Source: Actinomycetes bacterium
GTDB lineage: Bacteria > Actinomycetota > CALGFH01
Assembly: GCA_036003705.1 (NCBI GenBank)
Contig: DASYSE010000126.1
Span: forward strand, 1,746 to 65,745
Length of the DNA: 64,000 nt
Direction of reading: 5' to 3'
Part shown: positions 3,821 to 62,126 of the stretch, in pieces
How the letters are laid out: the number at the start of each line of letters is the position of its first letter
Numbering within the stretch: position 1 is the first letter of the stretch
The notes under the pieces: model-generated
Databases searched by the model: none
Told to the model about the DNA's origin: nothing
Seen by the model: the letters and a program-made list of their open reading frames with translations, nothing else
Made by a program: the position numbers and the translations under genes

Positions 3821-4516
3821 TCAGCGGCGCAGTATCACCCATAGGTGCCGATGCCCACGCGGTCGTAGCTCGACGCGGATCCCCGGTCTGGACGCGGCCT
3901 GGAGTAGCCGGTGCCTCGGGACACGGGTGCCGCGCCAGGCAGCCGACCACACCCGGCGACCCTGGGCGGCGTGAACAAGGTGACCGGCGAGGTCGACCGC
4001 CCACGGCAGCGGACCCGGATGGCGCACCTGCAGCGCACCAAGCCCACCTGGTCTCAGCACGCGGCCGGCCTCGTCTAAGTAGCCAAGGACCGCCGCACCA
4101 GTTGGGACGTGCTGCAGGGTGATGTAGGAGAAGACGTCGTCGACTGAACGGTCGGGAATCCCGGCAAGGTCGGCACCGGAGCCGAGCGCCCACTCCACGT
4201 TGCCGACGCCGGCCAGGTTGCCGCGGCCGAGCGTTAGCATCTCGTCAGACACGTCGAGGGCGATCACCCGTCCGTACAACTCGGCGAAGCGGTGAGTCAT
4301 GCGACCGGCCCCGGCGCCGATCTCCAGCAAGGTCTTGTCCTTGGACGGCTGGAGTCCGCAGAAGGCGATGAGCTCGTCGGTGTCCCGGCGGCCGCGCTCG
4401 AAGAAGGGGTCGGAGGCCGTGGCGATGTACCAGCTGGCGTCTTCATGTGCGGCGCGGTTCCACCAGACTCTGGAGTCGGCCACCGGATCCCTCACGCCAT
4501 TCTCGACGAGCGTCAT
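3821..4516 (-). CDS. class I SAM-dependent methyltransferase
   Basis: LEIGAGAGRMTHRFAELYGRVIALDVSDEML is a motif I GxGxG-type SAM-binding site. Confidence 0.75.
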   Translation of the reverse strand: MTLVENGVRDPVADSRVWWNRAAHEDASWYIATASDPFFERGRRDTDELIAFCGLQPSKDKTLLEIGAGAGRMTHRFAELYGRVIALDVSDEMLTLGRGNLAGVGNVEWALGSGADLAGIPDRSVDDVFSYITLQHVPTGAAVLGYLDEAGRVLRPGGLGALQVRHPGPLPWAVDLAGHLVHAAQGRRVWSAAWRGTRVPRHRLLQAASRPGIRVELRPRGHRHLWVILRR

Positions 4517-4624
4517 TTGCGCGCGGACTCTACGAGAGTCCGCCTAAGGGGACAAGCTGGCGAACCCAGGGGGTGCGCGGAGGTCCGGTTCCGTACTGCG
4601 TTATCCCGTTGACCTGGGCCGATG

Positions 4625-4700
4625 TGGTGGGCAGGGACGGGATCGAACCGCCGACCTTGCGGTTTTCAGCCGCACGCTCTACCGACTGAGCTACCTGCCC
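4625..4700 (-). tRNA. tRNA-Phe (GAA)
   Basis: The reverse complement folds as a tRNA: GGGCAGGTAGCTCAGTCGGTAGAGC...CTGAAAA...GGTTCGATCCCGTCCCTGCCCACCA, anticodon GAA, CCA encoded. Confidence 0.9.
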
Positions 4701-4735
4701 GGGGGAGCCGGGGGCGGGTTGCCTCCGGTCCGGAG

Positions 4736-4811
4736 CGGTCCCGACGGGATTTGAACCCGCGACCTCCGCCTTGACAGGGCGGCGAGCACAGCCAAGCTGC
4801 TCCACGGGACC
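4736..4811 (-). tRNA. tRNA-Asp (GTC)
   Basis: Reverse complement GGTCCCGTGGAGCAGC...CCTGTCAAGG...GGTTCAAATCCCGTCGGGACCG, anticodon GTC; acceptor stem pairs. Confidence 0.88.
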
Positions 4812-4830
4812 ACGCATGGTGGCCATCCTG

Positions 4831-4903
4831 TGCCCCCAGCGGAGTTCGAATCCGCGTCGCCACCTTGAAAGGGTGGTGTCCTAGGCCACTAGACGATGGG
4901 GGC
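4831..4903 (-). tRNA. tRNA-Glu (TTC)
   Basis: Reverse complement GCCCCCATCGTCTAGTGGCCTAGGACACCACCCTTTCAAGGTGG...TTCGAACTCCGCTGGGGGCA, anticodon TTC. Confidence 0.88.
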
Positions 4904-4920
4904 CCGGCTCGGTTGCGGGG

Positions 4921-4993
4921 TGGGCCGCGTCGGCCTCGAACCGACGACACCCCGGTTAAAAGCCGGGTGCTCTACCAACTGAGCTAGCGGCCC
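4921..4993 (-). tRNA. tRNA-Lys (TTT)
   Basis: Reverse complement GGGCCGCTAGCTCAGTTGGTAGAGCACCCGGCTTTTAACCGG...GGTTCGAGGCCGACGCGGCCCA, anticodon TTT. Confidence 0.88.
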
Positions 4994-5054
4994 ACGACAG
5001 AGCGCGCCGATGGTGCCATCGTCGTCGGCGCCCTGTCAAAGGATACCTAGTCGG

Positions 5055-5555
5055 CTAGCCCCAGCCGGGAGTGGTCTGCTCGAAGTTCACCGTCACCCAG
5101 ATGGTCCGTCCGCTGATCCAGGTTCCGACCCCGAACAGGTTGGCCCGGCGGTAGAGGATGTTGGCCCGGTGCTGCGGGGAGTCCATGAACGCGTCCTGGA
5201 GCCGGCGCACCGACGGCCCGATGCCGTCGGACCCCATGGTGCCGCAGCCGACGTTCTGGCCGAGCCAGACCCAGTGGTCGCTGGCACTGGAGATGTCGTT
5301 GTGCCAGAGCGCTCGGCTGTCGCAGCGGCCGCCGTAGCGCTGAGCGGCCTTGCGGGCCATCGCCACCGAGTGCGACCGGGACAGCTTGGCCAGGGTGGCC
5401 GAGGTGGTCAGCGAGCGCAGGCCGTTGGCGCGCCGATCGGCGTTGGTGACGCGGACGAACTCGGCGTCGGTGCGGGGTCCCGCGCCGGCCGGGACCGGCA
5501 GCGCGAGCATGCCTACGACCAACAGCAGCAACGTGAGCAGGCGGCGGACCGACAT
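5055..5555 (-). CDS. CAP (SCP/PR1-like) domain secreted protein
   Basis: N-terminal signal peptide (LLTLLLLVVGMLALPVPAGAG) followed by CAP-like HSVAMARK...HRANIL...FGVG. Confidence 0.65.
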   Translation of the reverse strand: MSVRRLLTLLLLVVGMLALPVPAGAGPRTDAEFVRVTNADRRANGLRSLTTSATLAKLSRSHSVAMARKAAQRYGGRCDSRALWHNDISSASDHWVWLGQNVGCGTMGSDGIGPSVRRLQDAFMDSPQHRANILYRRANLFGVGTWISGRTIWVTVNFEQTTPGWG

Positions 5556-12571: not shown

Positions 12572-12618
12572 CCGGCAAACGTCGGTAGCATGGAAGCACC
12601 CGCGGGGTTTTCCCGCGG

Positions 12619-13935
12619 GTGCTTCGCGTCTCACGGTGGCGGAGCGGGAGCGGCCCAGGGAGCCCCCGGTTGGAGACCTTCGAGCGGCCGGTTCGCCGGG
12701 TCGCGGTCCTTTCGGTGCACTCGTCGCCGCTCGCCCCTCCAGGGGTCGGGGACTCCGGGGGCATGAACGTCACCGTCCGCGCCCTTGCCGGTGAGCTGGC
12801 CAAGGTCGGGATCGAGTCCGACCTGTACACCAGGGCCACCTCCCCCGATGACCCGCCGGTGGTCGCGGTCGGGCCGGGTGTCAGGGTGCTGCACCTGCCC
12901 GCGGGGCCGCTGGAGCCGATCCCCAAGCAGCACCTTCCCCGCTACCTGTGCGCGTTCCTGTGCTCGCTGCTGCGGGCCGGTCAGCGGTACGGCCCCTACG
13001 ACATCCTGCACAGCCACTACTGGGTGTCGGGCTGGGTGGCCAGGCTGGTCCGGGAGCGCTGGGACATCCCGGTGGCGCACTCGTTCCACACCCTCGGCCG
13101 GGTCAAGAACCTCAGCCTGGCCGACGGCGACGAGCCCGAGCCGCCGACCCGGCTGGCCGGCGAGGAGCGGGTGGTGGCCGCCGCCGACTGCCTGCTCGCC
13201 CCGTCCCCGGCCGAGGCCCGGCAGCTGGTCGAGCTGTACGGCGCCTCCCCGGCCAAGGTCCGCATCGTCCCCCACGGCGTCGACCAGACCCGCTTCCACC
13301 AGGGCGACCGTGAGGCGGCCCGGGCCGCCCTCGGGATCGCCCGCCGCCACGTGCTCGCCTTCGTCGGGCGGCTGCAGCCGCTCAAGGCGCCGGACGTCGC
13401 CGTCCTCACCCTTGCCGCCCTGCGCGCGCAGCGGCCCGACCTCGACGTCGAGCTGCTGGTCGTCGGGGGGGCCTCCGGCAACGGCGACGGCGAACCGGCC
13501 CGGCTGGTCCGGCTGGCCGCCGAGGCCGGGGTCGCCGACCGGATCCGCTTCCTCGCCCCGCGGCCCCACGACCGCCTCGCCACCATCGACCGGGCGGCCG
13601 ACCTGGTGCTGATGCCATCCTGGTCGGAGTCGTTCGGGCTGGTCGCCCTCGAGGCCCAGGCCTGCGGGACCCCGGTGGTGGCGGCCGGGGTCGGGGGCCT
13701 GCTGCACGCGGTCGGCGACGGCACCACCGGGATCCTGCTGGCCAACCACCAGCCGGCGGCATGGGCCGATTCGGTCGCCCGGCTGCTGTCCAGCCCCCGC
13801 CGCCTGGCCGCCATGAGCACCGCCGCCGCCCGCTTCGCCGGCGCCCACGGCTGGGACCAGAGCGCCGCCCGTCTTCTCGAGATCTACGGGGACCTGGTTC
13901 GGGTCCGCGAGGTTGTTCTGGAGCAGACCAGCTAA
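12619..13935 (+). CDS. mshA: GT4 glycosyltransferase, D-inositol-3-phosphate glycosyltransferase MshA-like
   Basis: VAVLSVHSSPLAPPGVGDSGGMNV...HSHYWVSGWV...ESFGLVALEAQACGTPVVA are MshA hallmark blocks. The exact start is uncertain; an in-frame GTG about 50 nt downstream is possible. Confidence 0.8.
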   Translation: MLRVSRWRSGSGPGSPRLETFERPVRRVAVLSVHSSPLAPPGVGDSGGMNVTVRALAGELAKVGIESDLYTRATSPDDPPVVAVGPGVRVLHLPAGPLEPIPKQHLPRYLCAFLCSLLRAGQRYGPYDILHSHYWVSGWVARLVRERWDIPVAHSFHTLGRVKNLSLADGDEPEPPTRLAGEERVVAAADCLLAPSPAEARQLVELYGASPAKVRIVPHGVDQTRFHQGDREAARAALGIARRHVLAFVGRLQPLKAPDVAVLTLAALRAQRPDLDVELLVVGGASGNGDGEPARLVRLAAEAGVADRIRFLAPRPHDRLATIDRAADLVLMPSWSESFGLVALEAQACGTPVVAAGVGGLLHAVGDGTTGILLANHQPAAWADSVARLLSSPRRLAAMSTAAARFAGAHGWDQSAARLLEIYGDLVRVREVVLEQTS

Positions 13936-13971
13936 GACGCGGCCGCAGCTTGACCTCCCGTGGTCCCCGAA

Positions 13972-14030
13972 CCATGTGGGGAAGCTCCGGCTCCACCCCA
14001 CCGCCACGCTGGCGCGCCGGTGCCACGGCC
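13972..14030. repeat. copy A of a ~58-bp imperfect direct repeat (partner at 16006..16063)
   Basis: ccatgtggggaagctccggctccaccccaccgccacgctggcgcgccggtgccacggcc versus ccaggtgggaagctccggctccccgcaaccgccacgcaagcgcgcctgtgccttggtcc, same orientation, about 80-85% identity. Confidence 0.55.
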
Positions 14031-14199
14031 AGGGTGATCGCCTTCCACACCCTGGACACGCGCGGTCGCTGAGGCCGGCGACCGCTGGTCGTTCCGAGCC
14101 GCGGAACGCGATGCGATGAACGCTTCGATCCCGTCGAGGACCCGCGGCAGCCCGAAGGTGCCCGGCCTGCGCCGTCACCGCGCTCTGGGCCGCGCCCAC

Positions 14200-15036
14200 C
14201 TAGCCCGGGCGGGTGCGGCGGTTGCGACGGCGCGACTCCGGGGTGCGGGGTTCCCAGCGGAACTTGCGGACGGCGACCAGGAGGCCGGCGGCGCCCCAGA
14301 GGGCGACGACGGCGAGATGGCCCCAGCGGAACCCGGCGCCGGAGACGAAGGGGTTGAAGGTCGCCTCCAAGGCGAGGGCGAAATGTTTCACGGGGAACAC
14401 GGAGCCGATCACCCGGAGCCAGGTGGGTGCGTTGTCGAGGGGGAAGAACAGGTCGGAGACGAAGGCAACGGGCAGCACGGTGAAGTTGGCGACCGCCGGG
14501 GCGGCCTCGCCGTTGGGGATCAGGGCGGCAACGGCCATGCCGAGGGCGCAGAAGCAGCCCGCGCCCAGCAGCAGGGTCACGACCGCCGCCGGCAGCATCC
14601 GCCAGATGAGCTCGACGTCGAACAGGACGACCCCGACCCCGACCATGATCACGGCGCTGACCACCGAGAACCAGACCGAGGACAGGATCCGGGCGGCCAC
14701 GTACACCGACGCCGGCAATGGCGTGCCCCTGACCCGCTTGAGGATGCCCATGTCGCGATTCATCGCCACCCCGGTGGCCAGGCCGGTGTAGCAGGTGGAG
14801 ACGACCGCGAACGCCAGCAGCCCCGGGGTGAGGAACTGGGCGTAGGGGATGCCGCCCCGCCCGGCGAGGCGCTGACCGGAGTTCAGCGAGCCGAGCAGGA
14901 GCAGGAACATGACCGGGAAGGCGAGCGAGAAGAAGGCCGAGAACGGGTTGCGCAGGAACAGCTTGTTCTGATGGCGAATCTGTCGCAGGAGCAGCGACCC
15001 GGTCGCCGGGCGGCCGGTGCGCGCCTGCACGCTCAC
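14200..15036 (-). CDS. ABC-2 type transporter permease
   Basis: Six predicted TM helices with an ABC-2 signature; overlaps the upstream ATPase gene by 4 nt. Confidence 0.8.
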   Translation of the reverse strand: MSVQARTGRPATGSLLLRQIRHQNKLFLRNPFSAFFSLAFPVMFLLLLGSLNSGQRLAGRGGIPYAQFLTPGLLAFAVVSTCYTGLATGVAMNRDMGILKRVRGTPLPASVYVAARILSSVWFSVVSAVIMVGVGVVLFDVELIWRMLPAAVVTLLLGAGCFCALGMAVAALIPNGEAAPAVANFTVLPVAFVSDLFFPLDNAPTWLRVIGSVFPVKHFALALEATFNPFVSGAGFRWGHLAVVALWGAAGLLVAVRKFRWEPRTPESRRRNRRTRPG

Positions 15037-15938
15037 CGGTCGCCGCCGGTCAGGCGCAGGTAGACGTCCTCCAGGGACGGGCGGGTGACGGCCAGGGCCT
15101 CCAGCTCGTCGCCCCTGGAGAGAGCCCAGCCGGTCAGGGCGTGGAGGGCGCCGGTCGGGGACCCGGTGCGCAGGACCACCCGGCCATCCTCGAGCCGCGG
15201 CCTGGCCGGCCCGAGCGCCGGCAGGTCGTCGAGGCCGGCGCCGTCAGGGAGCCGGAAGCTGATCTCGGCCTCGGCGACGTCGCGGCCGCCCAGCGAGGCC
15301 GGGCTGCCCTCGGCCACGATCCGCCCGGCGGCCATGATGGCGACCCGGTCGGCCAGGTTCTGGGCCTCGTCCATGTAGTGGGTGGTGAGCAGGATGGTCT
15401 TGCCCAGCGCACGCAGGCTGTCGACCAGCTCCCAGGCGTGCCGCCTGGCCGACGGGTCGAAGCCGGTGGTGGGCTCGTCGAGGAAGATCAGGTCGGGGTC
15501 GCCGACGATGCCGAGGGCGAGGTCGAGCCGGCGCTGCTGGCCACCGGAGAGGGTCCGGGAGCGGGCGTCGCGCTTGGAGGCCAGCCCGACCAGATCGATC
15601 ACCTCGGCCGGGCTCCGGGGATGCGGGTAGTAGCTGCCGAACAGGCCGACCAGCTCGGCGACGGTCAGCTCGCGGTCGATGCCGGCCGACTGCAGCACGA
15701 TGCCGATGCGCTCCCGGAGGTCGCGCCCGCCCTGCTCCGGGTCGAAGCCGAGCACCTCGACCGAGCCGCCGGAGCGACTGCGGTAGCCCTCGAGGACCTC
15801 CAGCGTGGTCGTCTTGCCGGCACCGTTCGGTCCCAGCAGGGCGAAGCACTCGCCCTCGGCCACCTCGAAGCTGACGCCGGCCACCGCCTCGACCGCCCCG
15901 TACGCCTTGCGAAGGTCCTTGACCTGGATCGCCGCCAC
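15033..15938 (-). CDS. ABC transporter ATP-binding protein
   Basis: GPNGAGKTT (Walker A), LSGGQQRRLDLA (signature), LIFLDEPTTGFD (Walker B). GTG start at 15938 with AAGGGAGG upstream. Confidence 0.85.
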   Translation of the reverse strand: MAAIQVKDLRKAYGAVEAVAGVSFEVAEGECFALLGPNGAGKTTTLEVLEGYRSRSGGSVEVLGFDPEQGGRDLRERIGIVLQSAGIDRELTVAELVGLFGSYYPHPRSPAEVIDLVGLASKRDARSRTLSGGQQRRLDLALGIVGDPDLIFLDEPTTGFDPSARRHAWELVDSLRALGKTILLTTHYMDEAQNLADRVAIMAAGRIVAEGSPASLGGRDVAEAEISFRLPDGAGLDDLPALGPARPRLEDGRVVLRTGSPTGALHALTGWALSRGDELEALAVTRPSLEDVYLRLTGGDR

Positions 15939-16005
15939 GAGCCTCCCTTGGTCAATGCAAGAACCCCACTCCCCCCAAAACGGGCTCCCAAGGCCAGCCT
16001 CGATC

Positions 16006-16063
16006 CAGGTGGGAAGCTCCGGCTCCCCGCAACCGCCACGCAAGCGCGCCTGTGCCTTGGTCC
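16006..16063. repeat. copy B of the ~58-bp direct repeat flanking the ABC-2 operon
   Basis: See copy A. Lies in the divergent promoter region between the ABC ATPase start (15938) and the YbjN-like gene (16087). Confidence 0.55.
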
Positions 16064-16086
16064 GTCTCAACTGTAGTCTCGGGGGT

Positions 16087-16590
16087 GTGAACAGACGACC
16101 CGAGCCGGAAGAGTCGCGGGCGGCCGCGGTGGCGGCGGTGGAAGCGTTCGTCGCCGATGCCGGCGTGGCCGCCGAGGAGCTGGGCGACGGGCGCTGGTTC
16201 CTGCGCCTGGCCGGCGAGCGCAAGCTCGGGATCGGCGTCCACCTGGCCATCGGCGACCGTACCCTGCGGGTGGAGTCGTTCTTCATGCGAGCCCCCGAGG
16301 AACAGCAGGAGCGGCTCTACCGGGACCTGCTGCTGCGCCAGGCGACCAGCTACGTGCTCCGGTTCACCCTCGACGAGGCCGGCGACCTGTTCCTGGTCGG
16401 CCAGGTCCCGCTGCGGGCGGTCACCCCGGAGGAGGTCGATCGGGTGGTCGGCTCGGTCCTCGATCTCGCCGATGCCGCCTATTTGCCCGCGGTGGAGATT
16501 GGGTTCGCATCGAGCATTGCAGCCGAAAAAGCGTGGCGGGCGCGCCTGGCCGAGGGTTCGGCGCGTTCACCAGAAATTCCATCGAAGTAA
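16087..16590 (+). CDS. YbjN domain protein (putative bacterial sensory transduction regulator fold)
   Basis: WFLRLAGERKLGIGVHLAIGDRTLRVESFFM...LRFTLDEAGDLFLVGQVP is the YbjN-like pattern. GTG start at 16087 by amino-acid index. Confidence 0.55.
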   Translation: MNRRPEPEESRAAAVAAVEAFVADAGVAAEELGDGRWFLRLAGERKLGIGVHLAIGDRTLRVESFFMRAPEEQQERLYRDLLLRQATSYVLRFTLDEAGDLFLVGQVPLRAVTPEEVDRVVGSVLDLADAAYLPAVEIGFASSIAAEKAWRARLAEGSARSPEIPSK

Positions 16591-16641
16591 TTTTACCCGT
16601 CTCTACCTGGACATACGCGTCTGACCAGGGGAAACGCCCCC

Positions 16642-16670
16642 TTGACGGGCCTGGTGCCGCCTTCTAGATT
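16642..16670 (+). promoter_or_regulatory. sigma70-like promoter candidate (TTGACG-17-TAGATT) giving a ~350-nt leader before apgM
   Basis: cTTGACGggcctggtgccgccttcTAGATTg read directly from the sequence. Confidence 0.3.
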
Positions 16671-17031
16671 GCGCTTCGCCCCGAGGGGCCGACGCGGTTG
16701 GACTGGGAAATCCGGATAGGAGTTCCTGCTAGAAGGGCTGACGGGCCCGGACGGCGCGTCGCGGACGGCGGGTACGCGCATCCTGCTGCATCGCGGCGAG
16801 GTCCAAGCGGCCTCAGGGTCGTAGGACGGGACTCTCTCGAGTCGTGCTCGGGAAGGCCACGGGAGTTCCTCGGGGCGCCGATGACCCCCAGGGGCCCAAT
16901 CGGCCGGGAGCAGGCGGGCTTGCCCGCCGGTCAACCGGACGGGGTTCCTGGGGGTCGTCACTCTTTTCGCCCCAGCCGCCTGCGGCCCGTAGACTCGCAC
17001 CAAGTGTCCGCTGCAGCCCACGGAGGCGCCC

Positions 17032-18243
17032 ATGTCGCTCACCACCGATTCCGTTGTGACCGAGATGGCCAGGCCGGAGGGCAAGAAGGCGCTCCTGTTG
17101 GTGATGGACGGTCTCGGCGGCTACCGGACCGCCGAGCGGGGCTCGGAGCTGACCGAGGCCGCCACCCCCAACCTCGACCGGCTGGCCGGCGAGGGTTCCC
17201 TCGGCCTGCATGACCCGGTCACCCGGGGCATCACCCCCGGGTCCGGCGCCGGCCACCTGGGCCTGTTCGGCTACGACCCGCTGGCCTACGAGATCGGCCG
17301 GGGCGCCCTCTCGGCGGCCGGCATCGGCTTCGAGCTCCAGCCCGGCGACGTGGCCGCCCGGATCAACTTCTGCACCCTCGCCCCAGACGGGAACGTCGCC
17401 GACCGCCGGGCCGGACGGCTCCCCACCGAGGAGGCGGCCGGCATCTGCGCGCTGCTGATGCGCGAGGTCCGCCTGGAAGGGGTCGAGTTCTTCCTCCAGC
17501 CCGAGCGGGAGCACCGCGGCCTGCTGGTGCTGCGCGGGCAGGGCCTGGACCGGGACCTGACCGACACCGACCCGCAGCGCGAGGGCGTGCCGCCGCTGGA
17601 ACCGCAGGCCCGCTCGCCCGAGGCCACCCGGACCGCCGAGCTGGTCAAGCGCCTGCTCGACCAGGCCCGCTCCCTGCTCGCCGACCGCGAGCGCGGCAAC
17701 TTCCTGCTCCTGCGCGGCTTCGACAGCGTCAAGGAGCTGCCGAGCTTCCCGGACCGCTACCAGGTCAGGGCGCTGGCCATCGCCGCCTACCCGATGTACG
17801 TCGGCATCTCGCGGCTGCTCGGCTTCCAGACCCACCAGGTCGACGGGGCCGCCCCCGAGGAGGTCGACGCCCTGGCCGAGCTGCTGCCAGCCCACGATTT
17901 CGTGTTCATGCACATCAAGAAGACCGACTCGGCCGGTGAGGACGGCGACTTCGAGCGCAAGGTCGCCGCCATCGAGGAGGTCGACTCGCTCGTCCCGCGG
18001 ATGCTGGACGCCGGGGTCGACGTCCTGGCCGTCACCGGCGACCACTCCACCCCGGCCCAGATGGCCGCCCACTCCTGGCACCCGGTCCCTGTGCTGCTGT
18101 GGGGCGGCACCGCCGCCGCCGACGGCCTGCCCGGCTTCGACGAGGTCAACTGCCGCCAGGGGTCGCTCGGCCGCTTCGAGGCCAAGCATCTCCTGCCCCA
18201 GCTGCTCGCCGCCGCCGGACGCCTGGCCAAGTACGGCGCCTGA
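17032..18243 (+). CDS. apgM: cofactor-independent phosphoglycerate mutase, archaeal-type (ApgM family)
   Basis: LLLVMDGLGG...TPNLD...VAVTGDHSTP matches the metalloenzyme/ApgM family. Confidence 0.8.
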   Translation: MSLTTDSVVTEMARPEGKKALLLVMDGLGGYRTAERGSELTEAATPNLDRLAGEGSLGLHDPVTRGITPGSGAGHLGLFGYDPLAYEIGRGALSAAGIGFELQPGDVAARINFCTLAPDGNVADRRAGRLPTEEAAGICALLMREVRLEGVEFFLQPEREHRGLLVLRGQGLDRDLTDTDPQREGVPPLEPQARSPEATRTAELVKRLLDQARSLLADRERGNFLLLRGFDSVKELPSFPDRYQVRALAIAAYPMYVGISRLLGFQTHQVDGAAPEEVDALAELLPAHDFVFMHIKKTDSAGEDGDFERKVAAIEEVDSLVPRMLDAGVDVLAVTGDHSTPAQMAAHSWHPVPVLLWGGTAAADGLPGFDEVNCRQGSLGRFEAKHLLPQLLAAAGRLAKYGA

Positions 18244-61996: not shown

Positions 61997-62126
61997 CTCC
62001 GCCTCCCTTCAGGGTCGGCCCTCCGCCGCCATGCAAGAGCACCGGTGCCATGGCCACCCCTGATCCAGTTCCCGTTGGGGAGCGGTCGTAGACTGGGCGC
62101 GCCGCCCCGTCTCCAAGGAGCCTCCC

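Follow-up and report, generated by a model that had tools for sequence, protein, structure and literature searches.

Direct repeats beside an ABC-2 exporter operon as probable members of a modular intergenic repeat family in uncultured soil Actinomycetes

A 64,000-nucleotide stretch of DNA from an Actinomycetes bacterium (GenBank assembly GCA_036003705.1, contig DASYSE010000126.1, forward-strand positions 1,746 to 65,745; hereafter the window, whose coordinates are used throughout) contains two direct repeats, copy A and copy B, in the intergenic regions on the two sides of an ABC-2 exporter operon. These repeats are very probably (roughly 0.85) two diverged members of a short, modular repeat family spread through the intergenic DNA of a clade of uncultured soil Actinomycetes. 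The family to which they belong occupies many intergenic sites in random orientation and is present or absent between close relatives, and a gene that lies beside copy A in the closest relative has been deleted from the window. Copies A and B would have arrived independently in two neighbouring intergenic regions.

Results

The repeat pair in the window

The two repeats, at 13972-14030 and 16006-16063, have the same orientation, and their description in a sequence-only reading of this DNA, as elements of about 58 bp with 80 to 85% identity, held up well. A repeat search of the window returned an ungapped match of 87% identity over 46 nucleotides (nt) (13979-14024 and 16011-16056); allowing a single 1-nt indel extends the similarity from CCATGT/CCAGGT through GTGCC, with 85% identity across a core of about 53 nt. 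Smith-Waterman alignment of the A region with the B region, both of them intergenic, gave a score of 40, whereas 5,000 dinucleotide-preserving shuffles gave a mean of 13.4 (standard deviation 2.3) and a maximum of 27, with none of the 5,000 at 40, and the similarity therefore kept its significance on alignment. A pattern representing the 3' half of the repeat occurs exactly twice in the 64-kb window, with 0.01 occurrences expected. The gene context was also as the sequence-only reading had placed it, with copy A in the intergenic region 3' of mshA and copy B in the divergent region shared with the YbjN-like gene. A search with family profiles added a third, partial copy.

13958..14044, plus strand: copy A (core 13972-14030), downstream of the mshA stop codon
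15994..16078, plus strand: copy B (core 16006-16063), in the divergent intergenic region between the ATPase and YbjN-like genes
62022..62063, plus strand: third copy, partial, 3' module only (CCGCCATGCAAGAGCACCGGTGCCATGGCC), in another divergent intergenic region

Against the family profile, copy A is matched by nhmmer with E values of 5e-13 to 3e-15 and copy B with 1e-14 to 2e-15; the partial copy is matched at 9e-4 by the fam2 profile and at 0.008 by the first profile. The hairpin of copy A is weakened (GTGGGG..CCCCAC at 13976-14001), its right end is GGGTGATC at 14032-14039, and its orthologue, with a core that is 91% identical, lies at 4322-4410 of L001 (the loci of relatives are labelled in this way below). 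The conserved -10 box of the YbjN-like gene follows about 10 nt after the end of copy B. Copies A and B both belong to a divergent subfamily with a weakened hairpin.

Distribution of the family

Metagenome contigs were scanned with the YbjN-like protein, which gave 80 loci from relatives (L001 to L080, 74 to 98% identity), and a first profile was made by combining the window copies with their positional homologues. This profile finds the element at non-orthologous intergenic sites and in both orientations.

Spacer between ybjN and pgm in L041 and L067-L075, minus orientation: non-orthologous site, from the profile search
After pgm in L044 and L064: non-orthologous sites, from the profile search
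Kilobases upstream in L064 and L076: non-orthologous sites, from the profile search

One genome per species (GTDB representatives) was scanned with the pattern GCTCN{0,3}CCCCACN{9,13}GCGCCKGTGCC, and matches were taken as confirmed at an nhmmer E value below 1e-8. At least 115 stretches match the pattern, and 55 of those listed were confirmed. Among the matches listed, the confirmed stretches (at least 55) come from 11 metagenome-assembled genomes (MAGs) of soil Actinomycetes or Actinomycetota, which are labelled Actinomycetes or Actinomycetota bacterium, uncultured actinobacterium or plain bacterium. The assemblies richest in the element are JBKPDO01, with at least 23 stretches and at least 26 sites, DATHIG01 (at least eight stretches), JASLBL01 (at least seven) and DASQWY01 (at least five). 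The ten MAGs other than JBKPDO01 hold at least two to eight each, including DASYRU01 with at least four and CALGFH01, the genome of L002, with at least three. Beyond the ascertained copy, five further sites were found in 361 kb, and this density of about one per 70 kb suggests, as a rough estimate, tens of copies per genome. The profile does not support the other 60 listed stretches, from Streptomyces, Cellulomonas, Proteobacteria and others, which were set aside as chance pattern matches, as were two scan matches in viral contigs in which the rest of the element is missing. Neither the consensus nor copy A had a blastn match among the PLSDB plasmids.

All copies lie in short gaps between coding regions. 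With respect to the orientation of the element, the flanking genes of the 71 copies that could be classified are divergent (19), convergent (19), both antisense (18) or both sense (15), which places 38 of the 71 between convergent or divergent genes. The copies neighbour housekeeping genes that are unrelated to one another, such as pgk, tpiA and fpg (names read from translations). Inverted pairs of the element in L171 and L137 enclose pgk and an L,D-transpeptidase-like open reading frame (ORF) with fpg, likewise named from translations, and no transposase. A multicopy family at many unrelated intergenic sites in MAGs is what the sequence-only reading had listed as its first option, a repeated element resembling the repetitive extragenic palindromic (REP) elements. 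By contrast, an element specific to the exporter cassette, which that reading agreed would be contradicted by dozens of copies, does not fit at least 55 confirmed stretches in 11 MAGs with at least 26 sites in one of them.

A search of Rfam 15 gave no match at the gathering threshold in the window, and none to the element at E values up to 1 in 13900-17100. Weaker matches were sought at E values up to 1 in L168, L155 and L137; the only ones there lie far below gathering, fall over element copies and were read as chance (Thr_leader, 28 bits against 55, at L155 4737-4839; blv_FSE, 24 bits against a gathering threshold of 34, at L137 4469-4495). In a full-text literature search four 16-mers of the family consensus were not found in any paper, and a keyword search of the literature on actinobacterial intergenic repeats returned nothing relevant. 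This family of dispersed intergenic repeats appears to be undescribed, while the kind of element is well known.

Structure of the element

The consensus of 78 distinct aligned copies reads (GGTCCyC)GATCCATGT-GGGGGGAGC-TC-GCTCCCCCC-AC-GGCCCCCCAAGAGCGCCTGTGCC-ATGGTC(nnnGTGATC), and the element is about 55 to 85 bp long. A core of about 57 nt is highly conserved over the 78 copies, including segments that lie outside the search pattern. The element joins a hairpin module, consisting of a near-perfect GC hairpin of 10 to 11 bp, to a non-palindromic tail module, and the centroid fold of the consensus is the central hairpin. RNAalifold applied to 49 copies returned essentially no structure (three spurious pairs), and after this null result the helices were specified by hand and their pairs counted: the central 11-pair helix is paired in 93.7% of the cells over the 49 copies, and the closing helix GA-CCATG/CATGG-TC, of 5 to 7 bp, in 77.6%. 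The hairpin loop is flipped from TC to GA (CTCG to CGAG) in several copies.

Module content differs from site to site. Many of the copies in JBKPDO01 have an extra left module (GCGCGCGCTTCGCGCGCC..GGGCAGATC; GCGCGCGCTTCGCGCGC), some copies stop at GTGCC, and the tail module stands alone at some sites (62022-62063 in the window, and in L044). Tandem Repeats Finder (TRF) reports direct tandem arrays of a 60-nt hairpin unit (2.5 repeats in L137), a 40-nt tail unit (2.3 repeats in L155) and a 33-nt unit (2.1 repeats in L061). The element is non-coding, since variants in homopolymer length break every reading frame; a coding reading of the repeat pair was ruled out on this ground and because the differences between A and B are all non-synonymous in the open frame.

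A stop codon (TAG, TGA or TAA) stands directly 5' of the left end in many copies (..TAGTCCCTGATCC, ..TGAGCCCCGATCC; for example in L089, L146, L194, L133, L081, L097 and L174), and the element may often abut or supply the stop codon of the upstream gene.

History of copies A and B

The genes around the two copies are as follows.

12619-13935, plus strand: mshA-like GT4 glycosyltransferase (Pfam)
14200-15036, minus strand: ABC-2 permease (Pfam PF01061)
15033-15938, minus strand: ABC ATPase (Pfam PF00005)
16087-16590, plus strand: YbjN-like gene, with a GTG start placed by us
17032-18243, plus strand: iPGM-like mutase, pgm (Pfam)

Among the relatives, copy A is found in the window and L001 only. 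L001 is the closest relative, with 95 to 96% DNA identity to the window, and the presence of copy A in it indicates that this copy predates the split between the two. At the position of copy B, homologues of the main family type occur in L001, L002, L004-L007 and L016. In L003, L009, L010, L020, L025 and L031, which are comparably close relatives, the spacer between the ATPase gene and ybjN is 43 to 57 bp long and holds no element, only the conserved GGGTAGTCT box; L003 and L009 are without copy B despite a YbjN identity of 94 to 95%. The empty site in these two (CCTCG^GTCGGCC), set against the filled site of L004, places the insertion between G and G, with the ends ATCCATG...GCCATG, and no target-site duplication is seen in this one comparison of diverged sequences.

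Copy B of the window differs from that of L001 over the central 40 nt or so, where it has the signatures of the copy A subfamily (GCTCCGGCTCC, ACCGCCACGC and GCGCGCC, all common to A and B). It is 85% identical to copy A, 84% to the subfamily copies L155:4785 and L174:1721, which lie at other loci of other genomes, 81% to copy A of L001 and 70% to its own positional orthologue in L001. Over the final 23 nt at its 3' end it agrees fully with L155:4785 and not with A. As L001, L002, L004 and L016 all have the main type at this position, copy B appears to have been overwritten in the lineage of the window; as it is just as close to subfamily copies elsewhere as to A, the similarity between A and B would reflect their shared membership in the subfamily.

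The alternative that survives best is a local event, in which sequence next to mshA was duplicated or copy B was converted by copy A from 2 kb away. Such an event would account for the signatures of A in the centre of a copy whose orthologue and homologues are of the main type, and the subfamily of copy A was already in place, as L001 shows, before the split. However, copy B is no closer to A than to the copies in L155 and L174 or to copy A of L001, its 3' 23 nt follow L155:4785, and even under conversion both partners would belong to the dispersed family. The similarity can be explained without local gene conversion, a possible event that has no specific support, and we regard a local origin as unlikely.

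Promoter and RNA context

Copy B lies next to a conserved box, read from the sequence.

16074..16079, plus strand: -10-like box TAGTCT of the YbjN-like gene

A conserved (G)GGTAG(T/A)CT box is found 7 to 8 nt upstream of the GTG start of ybjN, and a similar one precedes pgm (about 17004-17012) in essentially all relatives; the ybjN box, in the form (G)GGTAGTCT/GTAGGCT, is conserved in all relatives, repeat or no repeat. TAGTCT is a putative promoter box of the YbjN-like gene, which is probably leaderless, and on the opposite strand TACAGT/TACCCT may possibly form an overlapping divergent -10 for the ABC operon.

Position next to such boxes raises the alternative that the element is a functional cis-acting signal that coordinates its neighbours, whether as an operator, a structured 5' untranslated region or small RNA, or a terminator or mRNA-stabilising hairpin. 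In line with this, the primary sequence is strongly conserved across genomes, unpaired segments included, the central hairpin is stable, and several copies sit directly upstream of -10-like TAGTCT/TAGACT boxes (copy B of the window, the copies in L069-L075 upstream of pgm, and the partial copy at 62022); the REP elements of enterobacteria are known to have gained secondary regulatory roles. Against it, the element is oriented at random to both neighbours, the neighbours are functionally unrelated, and close relatives have the same genes without the element. The near-uniform distribution of orientations, combined with unrelated neighbours, argues against a strand-specific cis-regulatory RNA or a terminator in particular. 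The hairpin is followed by ACGGCCCCCC and not by a T-tract, and a scan of 13800-16300, where terminator activity had been suggested as a check, predicts 0 terminator-like sites. The window copies, with their weakened hairpin, fold like shuffled sequences, and the element has no Rfam match. A cis-acting role as the explanation of the element is improbable on balance, and the small repeated RNA element that the earlier reading had offered as a third option loses its support for the same reasons of random orientation, shuffle-like folding of the window copies and the missing Rfam match.

The spacer between ybjN and pgm contains a separate feature.

16640-17000, plus strand: conserved non-coding element of about 300 nt

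This element is also present in L002 (7502-7977), L010, L012, L021, L038, L051 (7466-7935) and L053 (2785-3255). It has a promoter-like TTGACG-N17-TAGATT and a terminator-like end, in which a long GC hairpin (GACCCCCAGGGG...CCTGGGGGTC) is followed by CACTCTTTTCG. For eight sequences RNAalifold predicts 113 pairs, and compensatory double changes occur at 25 of these; the window sequence folds with a z score of -3.8 against shuffles; there was no Rfam match even at E values up to 1. We regard it as a candidate for an undescribed small RNA.

The exporter operon and the deleted PIG-L gene

The arrangement of the locus in the relatives was mapped by tblastn with five window proteins. The permease/ATPase pair lies between mshA and ybjN in most of the 80 loci, down to a YbjN identity of about 75%, and in L012, L031, L033 and L035 it is present with no nhmmer match to the repeat even at E values up to 1. 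Only L046, L048, L054, L057 and L059 are without the ABC operon by tblastn, having the order mshA-PIG-L-ybjN, and the junctions in L046, L048, L054 and L059 hold no copy of the repeat detectable by nhmmer. A Pfam scan of the window found no integrase or recombinase adjacent to the operon. The ABC-2 operon is evidently ancestral at this position and not a recent cassette.

The relatives have a further gene, about 700 bp long, between mshA and the permease gene. Its product is PIG-L, a GlcNAc-PI de-N-acetylase/LmbE-like protein (Pfam PF02585 on the ORFs of L001), and its place beside mshA suggests a mycothiol-related deacetylase. In most relatives the GTG start of PIG-L overlaps or abuts the mshA stop codon, with neither spacer nor element between them, and the gene is intact in L004, L012, L031, L033, L035, L039 and L042. 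In L001, a spacer of about 110 bp that contains copy A parts mshA from PIG-L, the frame of which is broken by a frameshift (ORFs 4409-4933 and 4504-5100). By blastn, 12604-14039 of the window corresponds to L001 2969-4404, and 14040-14079 corresponds to L001 5068-5107 at 97.5% identity; L001 4405-5067 is missing from the window. The deletion of PIG-L begins directly past the right end of copy A and has left the following segments.

14040..14079, plus strand: 3' remnant of PIG-L (..AFHTLDTRGR, stop codon at 14070-14072), from blastn against L001
14080..14199, no strand: segment of 120 bp from the PIG-L remnant to the permease stop codon, without counterpart

The 120-bp segment matches only itself in a blastn search against all of the approximately 195 fetched loci. 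The ABC operon looks exactly bracketed by the repeats because PIG-L was deleted in the window. Copy A is not immediately adjacent to the operon, since 170 bp, including the PIG-L remnant, lie between it and the permease stop codon; in L001 the PIG-L gene separates the two. The exact flanking of the operon claimed in the sequence-only reading is thus best explained as a coincidence produced by the later deletion.

That reading had also proposed remnants of an insertion, to be checked by comparing mshA/YbjN junctions with and without the cassette. The idea that the repeats are att-like or target-duplication scars of a site-specific insertion of the ABC-2 cassette between mshA and the YbjN-like gene accords with the direct repeats flanking the operon in the window and with the operon-free order in five distant relatives, but it is contradicted by the retention of the operon at its position in most relatives, repeat-free contigs included, by the PIG-L gene between copy A and the operon in L001, by operon-free junctions without a copy, by dozens of unrelated sites of the repeat and by the lack of an adjacent integrase or recombinase, and it can be dismissed as extremely improbable.

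An origin of the repeat from a tRNA fragment or tRNA att site was likewise ruled out, with tRNAs in the window only at 4625-4994. They form a minus-strand cluster of four (Phe-GAA, Asp-GTC, Glu-TTC and Lys-TTT) that is unrelated to the repeat.

Discussion

Comparison with known repeat classes

The family works like REP elements and bacterial interspersed mosaic elements (BIMEs) and is not a REPIN. Its units, like REP elements, are short, GC-rich and palindromic, lie outside genes in tens of copies per genome and in either orientation, are conserved across related species, form ordered tandem clusters at times and show no obvious target-site duplication. The head of a REP element reads GT(A/G)G, which the GTGG foot of the family hairpin resembles. 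The hairpin-forming palindrome is present across the family, at 93.7% paired, and interrupted in the window copies, and the extragenic copies are many, with at least 26 sites in JBKPDO01 and at least two to eight in each of ten further MAGs. BIMEs of Escherichia coli combine a palindromic unit with other motifs in mosaics of variable composition that cluster in intergenic regions, and the family is similarly a clustered mosaic of a left GCGCGCGCTTCGCGCGC module, a hairpin module and a tail module that varies by locus. Successive palindromic units of BIMEs alternate in orientation, whereas those of the family run head to tail according to TRF, and the two have no sequence similarity.

The replicative unit of a REPIN is an inverted doublet of REP elements (PMC3116915). 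Such a doublet forms one long hairpin, whereas the family consists mostly of units with a single hairpin and a conserved non-palindromic tail of about 30 nt, its arrays are direct tandem repeats of 60-, 40- or 33-nt units, and its hosts are uncultured Actinomycetes. The family does not have the inverted doublet by which REPINs are defined, and it is for this reason described as REP/BIME-like. The REP/REPIN systems of Proteobacteria are associated with RAYT transposases (PMC3116915, PMC3337134, PMC5581495), and a RAYT survey among these sources does not mention Actinobacteria in its main text; no RAYT gene was found in the 8-kb fragments with approximate queries.

The family resembles miniature inverted-repeat transposable elements (MITEs) in that it is small, non-coding and multicopy, with presence and absence between relatives. 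Unlike MITEs, it has no long terminal inverted repeats, only the closing stem of 5 to 7 bp that is 78% paired, and no target-site duplication; its ends, CCATG...CCATG, are direct.

Mycobacterial interspersed repetitive units (MIRUs) are units of 40 to 100 bp that are oriented with the operon and contain small ORFs with start/stop overlaps. Actinobacterial hosts, units of 40 to 100 bp, direct tandem iteration and location in spacers between operon genes are shared with the family, and the right end of copy A in L001 supplies the ATG of the downstream PIG-L ORF, which recalls those overlaps. Judged by the description of MIRUs, the family differs in its random orientation and in the homopolymer-length variation that breaks any frame.

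Proposed mechanism

Under the explanation that we prefer, independent members of a dispersed family, copy A would have inserted between mshA and the PIG-L gene, uncoupling PIG-L from mshA before the gene decayed, and the PIG-L gene would later have been lost from directly past the right end of copy A. Between the divergent ATPase and YbjN-like genes, the central part of an older main-type copy would have been replaced by sequence of copy A's subfamily to give copy B. The element itself would be a non-autonomous, REP/BIME-like repeat that is spread in trans by an enzyme that reads the hairpin together with specific sequence next to it and most plausibly acts on single-stranded DNA, as in the IS200/IS605-RAYT systems. 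The combination of no long terminal inverted repeats, no target duplication and a conserved 5' flank fits HUH/Y1 enzymes of the IS200/IS605-RAYT type better than DDE-type MITEs. Effects on the locus would be incidental, copy B now lying directly before the YbjN -10 box and probably contributing to the 5' leader of the ABC operon.

A more specific and doubtful proposal is that the element is the non-autonomous partner of a mobilisation system so far undescribed in Actinomycetota, in which a RAYT-like domesticated HUH transposase, or some other enzyme, reads the hairpin and the tail of about 30 nt. The family would then persist vertically across species as REPINs do, and a protein would specifically recognise the unpaired, near-invariant tail (CCCCCCAAGAGCGCCTGTGCC), a site that hosts would have put to use beside promoters.

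Several observations weigh against the explanation by a dispersed mobile family or narrow what can be read from the data. No transposase has been identified, which leaves mobilisation as a purely inferred step, and tblastn with the IS200 TnpA and the E. coli RAYT (YafM), as approximate queries, gave no match with E below 1 in about 1.5 Mb of fragments. Covariation is weak, with five pairs showing double changes where shuffles give 2.7, since the copies are so similar in sequence. Relative to shuffles the consensus gains little in folding (z about -1.7), and the window copies, with an interrupted stem, gain nothing (z of -0.3 to +1.5). The scan was ascertained by a pattern, which biases both conservation within the pattern columns and the per-genome counts, these being lower bounds, and the coding calls behind the context statistics were crude calls based on GC3. 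The conserved flanks (GGTCCyCG.. and ..GTCnnnGTGATC) may equally be part of the element or a preferred target. Finally, the 64-kb window holds only two full copies and one partial copy, and copies in the source genome were counted within the window alone.

Implications

For this locus the analysis removes a false lead, as the ABC-2 exporter does not appear to be a recently acquired cassette, nor the repeats recombination sites. It also defines, by consensus, modular structure and a subfamily, an apparently undescribed repeat family in a clade of uncultured soil Actinomycetes. Families of this kind break metagenome assemblies, and several of the copies sit at contig ends; they can also be used as lineage markers, and they reshape intergenic regions. 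At this locus, an insertion would have parted mshA from a formerly overlapping PIG-L gene that has since acquired a frameshift in one relative and been lost from the window, and a conserved -10 box would have had its upstream DNA replaced by another copy. Should a cognate enzyme be found, biology of the REP/RAYT type would be extended to a clade for which the literature searched holds no description of it.

Unrelated tandem repeat families, for example those with GGCCGAGGGAGGGGAGGGAGCC and GGGTGAGCCGCATCGCTGG units, fill the spacers between ybjN and pgm in the more distant relatives L061 (7405-7652), L064 (7453-7753) and L044 (554-788), and the intergenic regions of this clade seem prone to gaining repeats.

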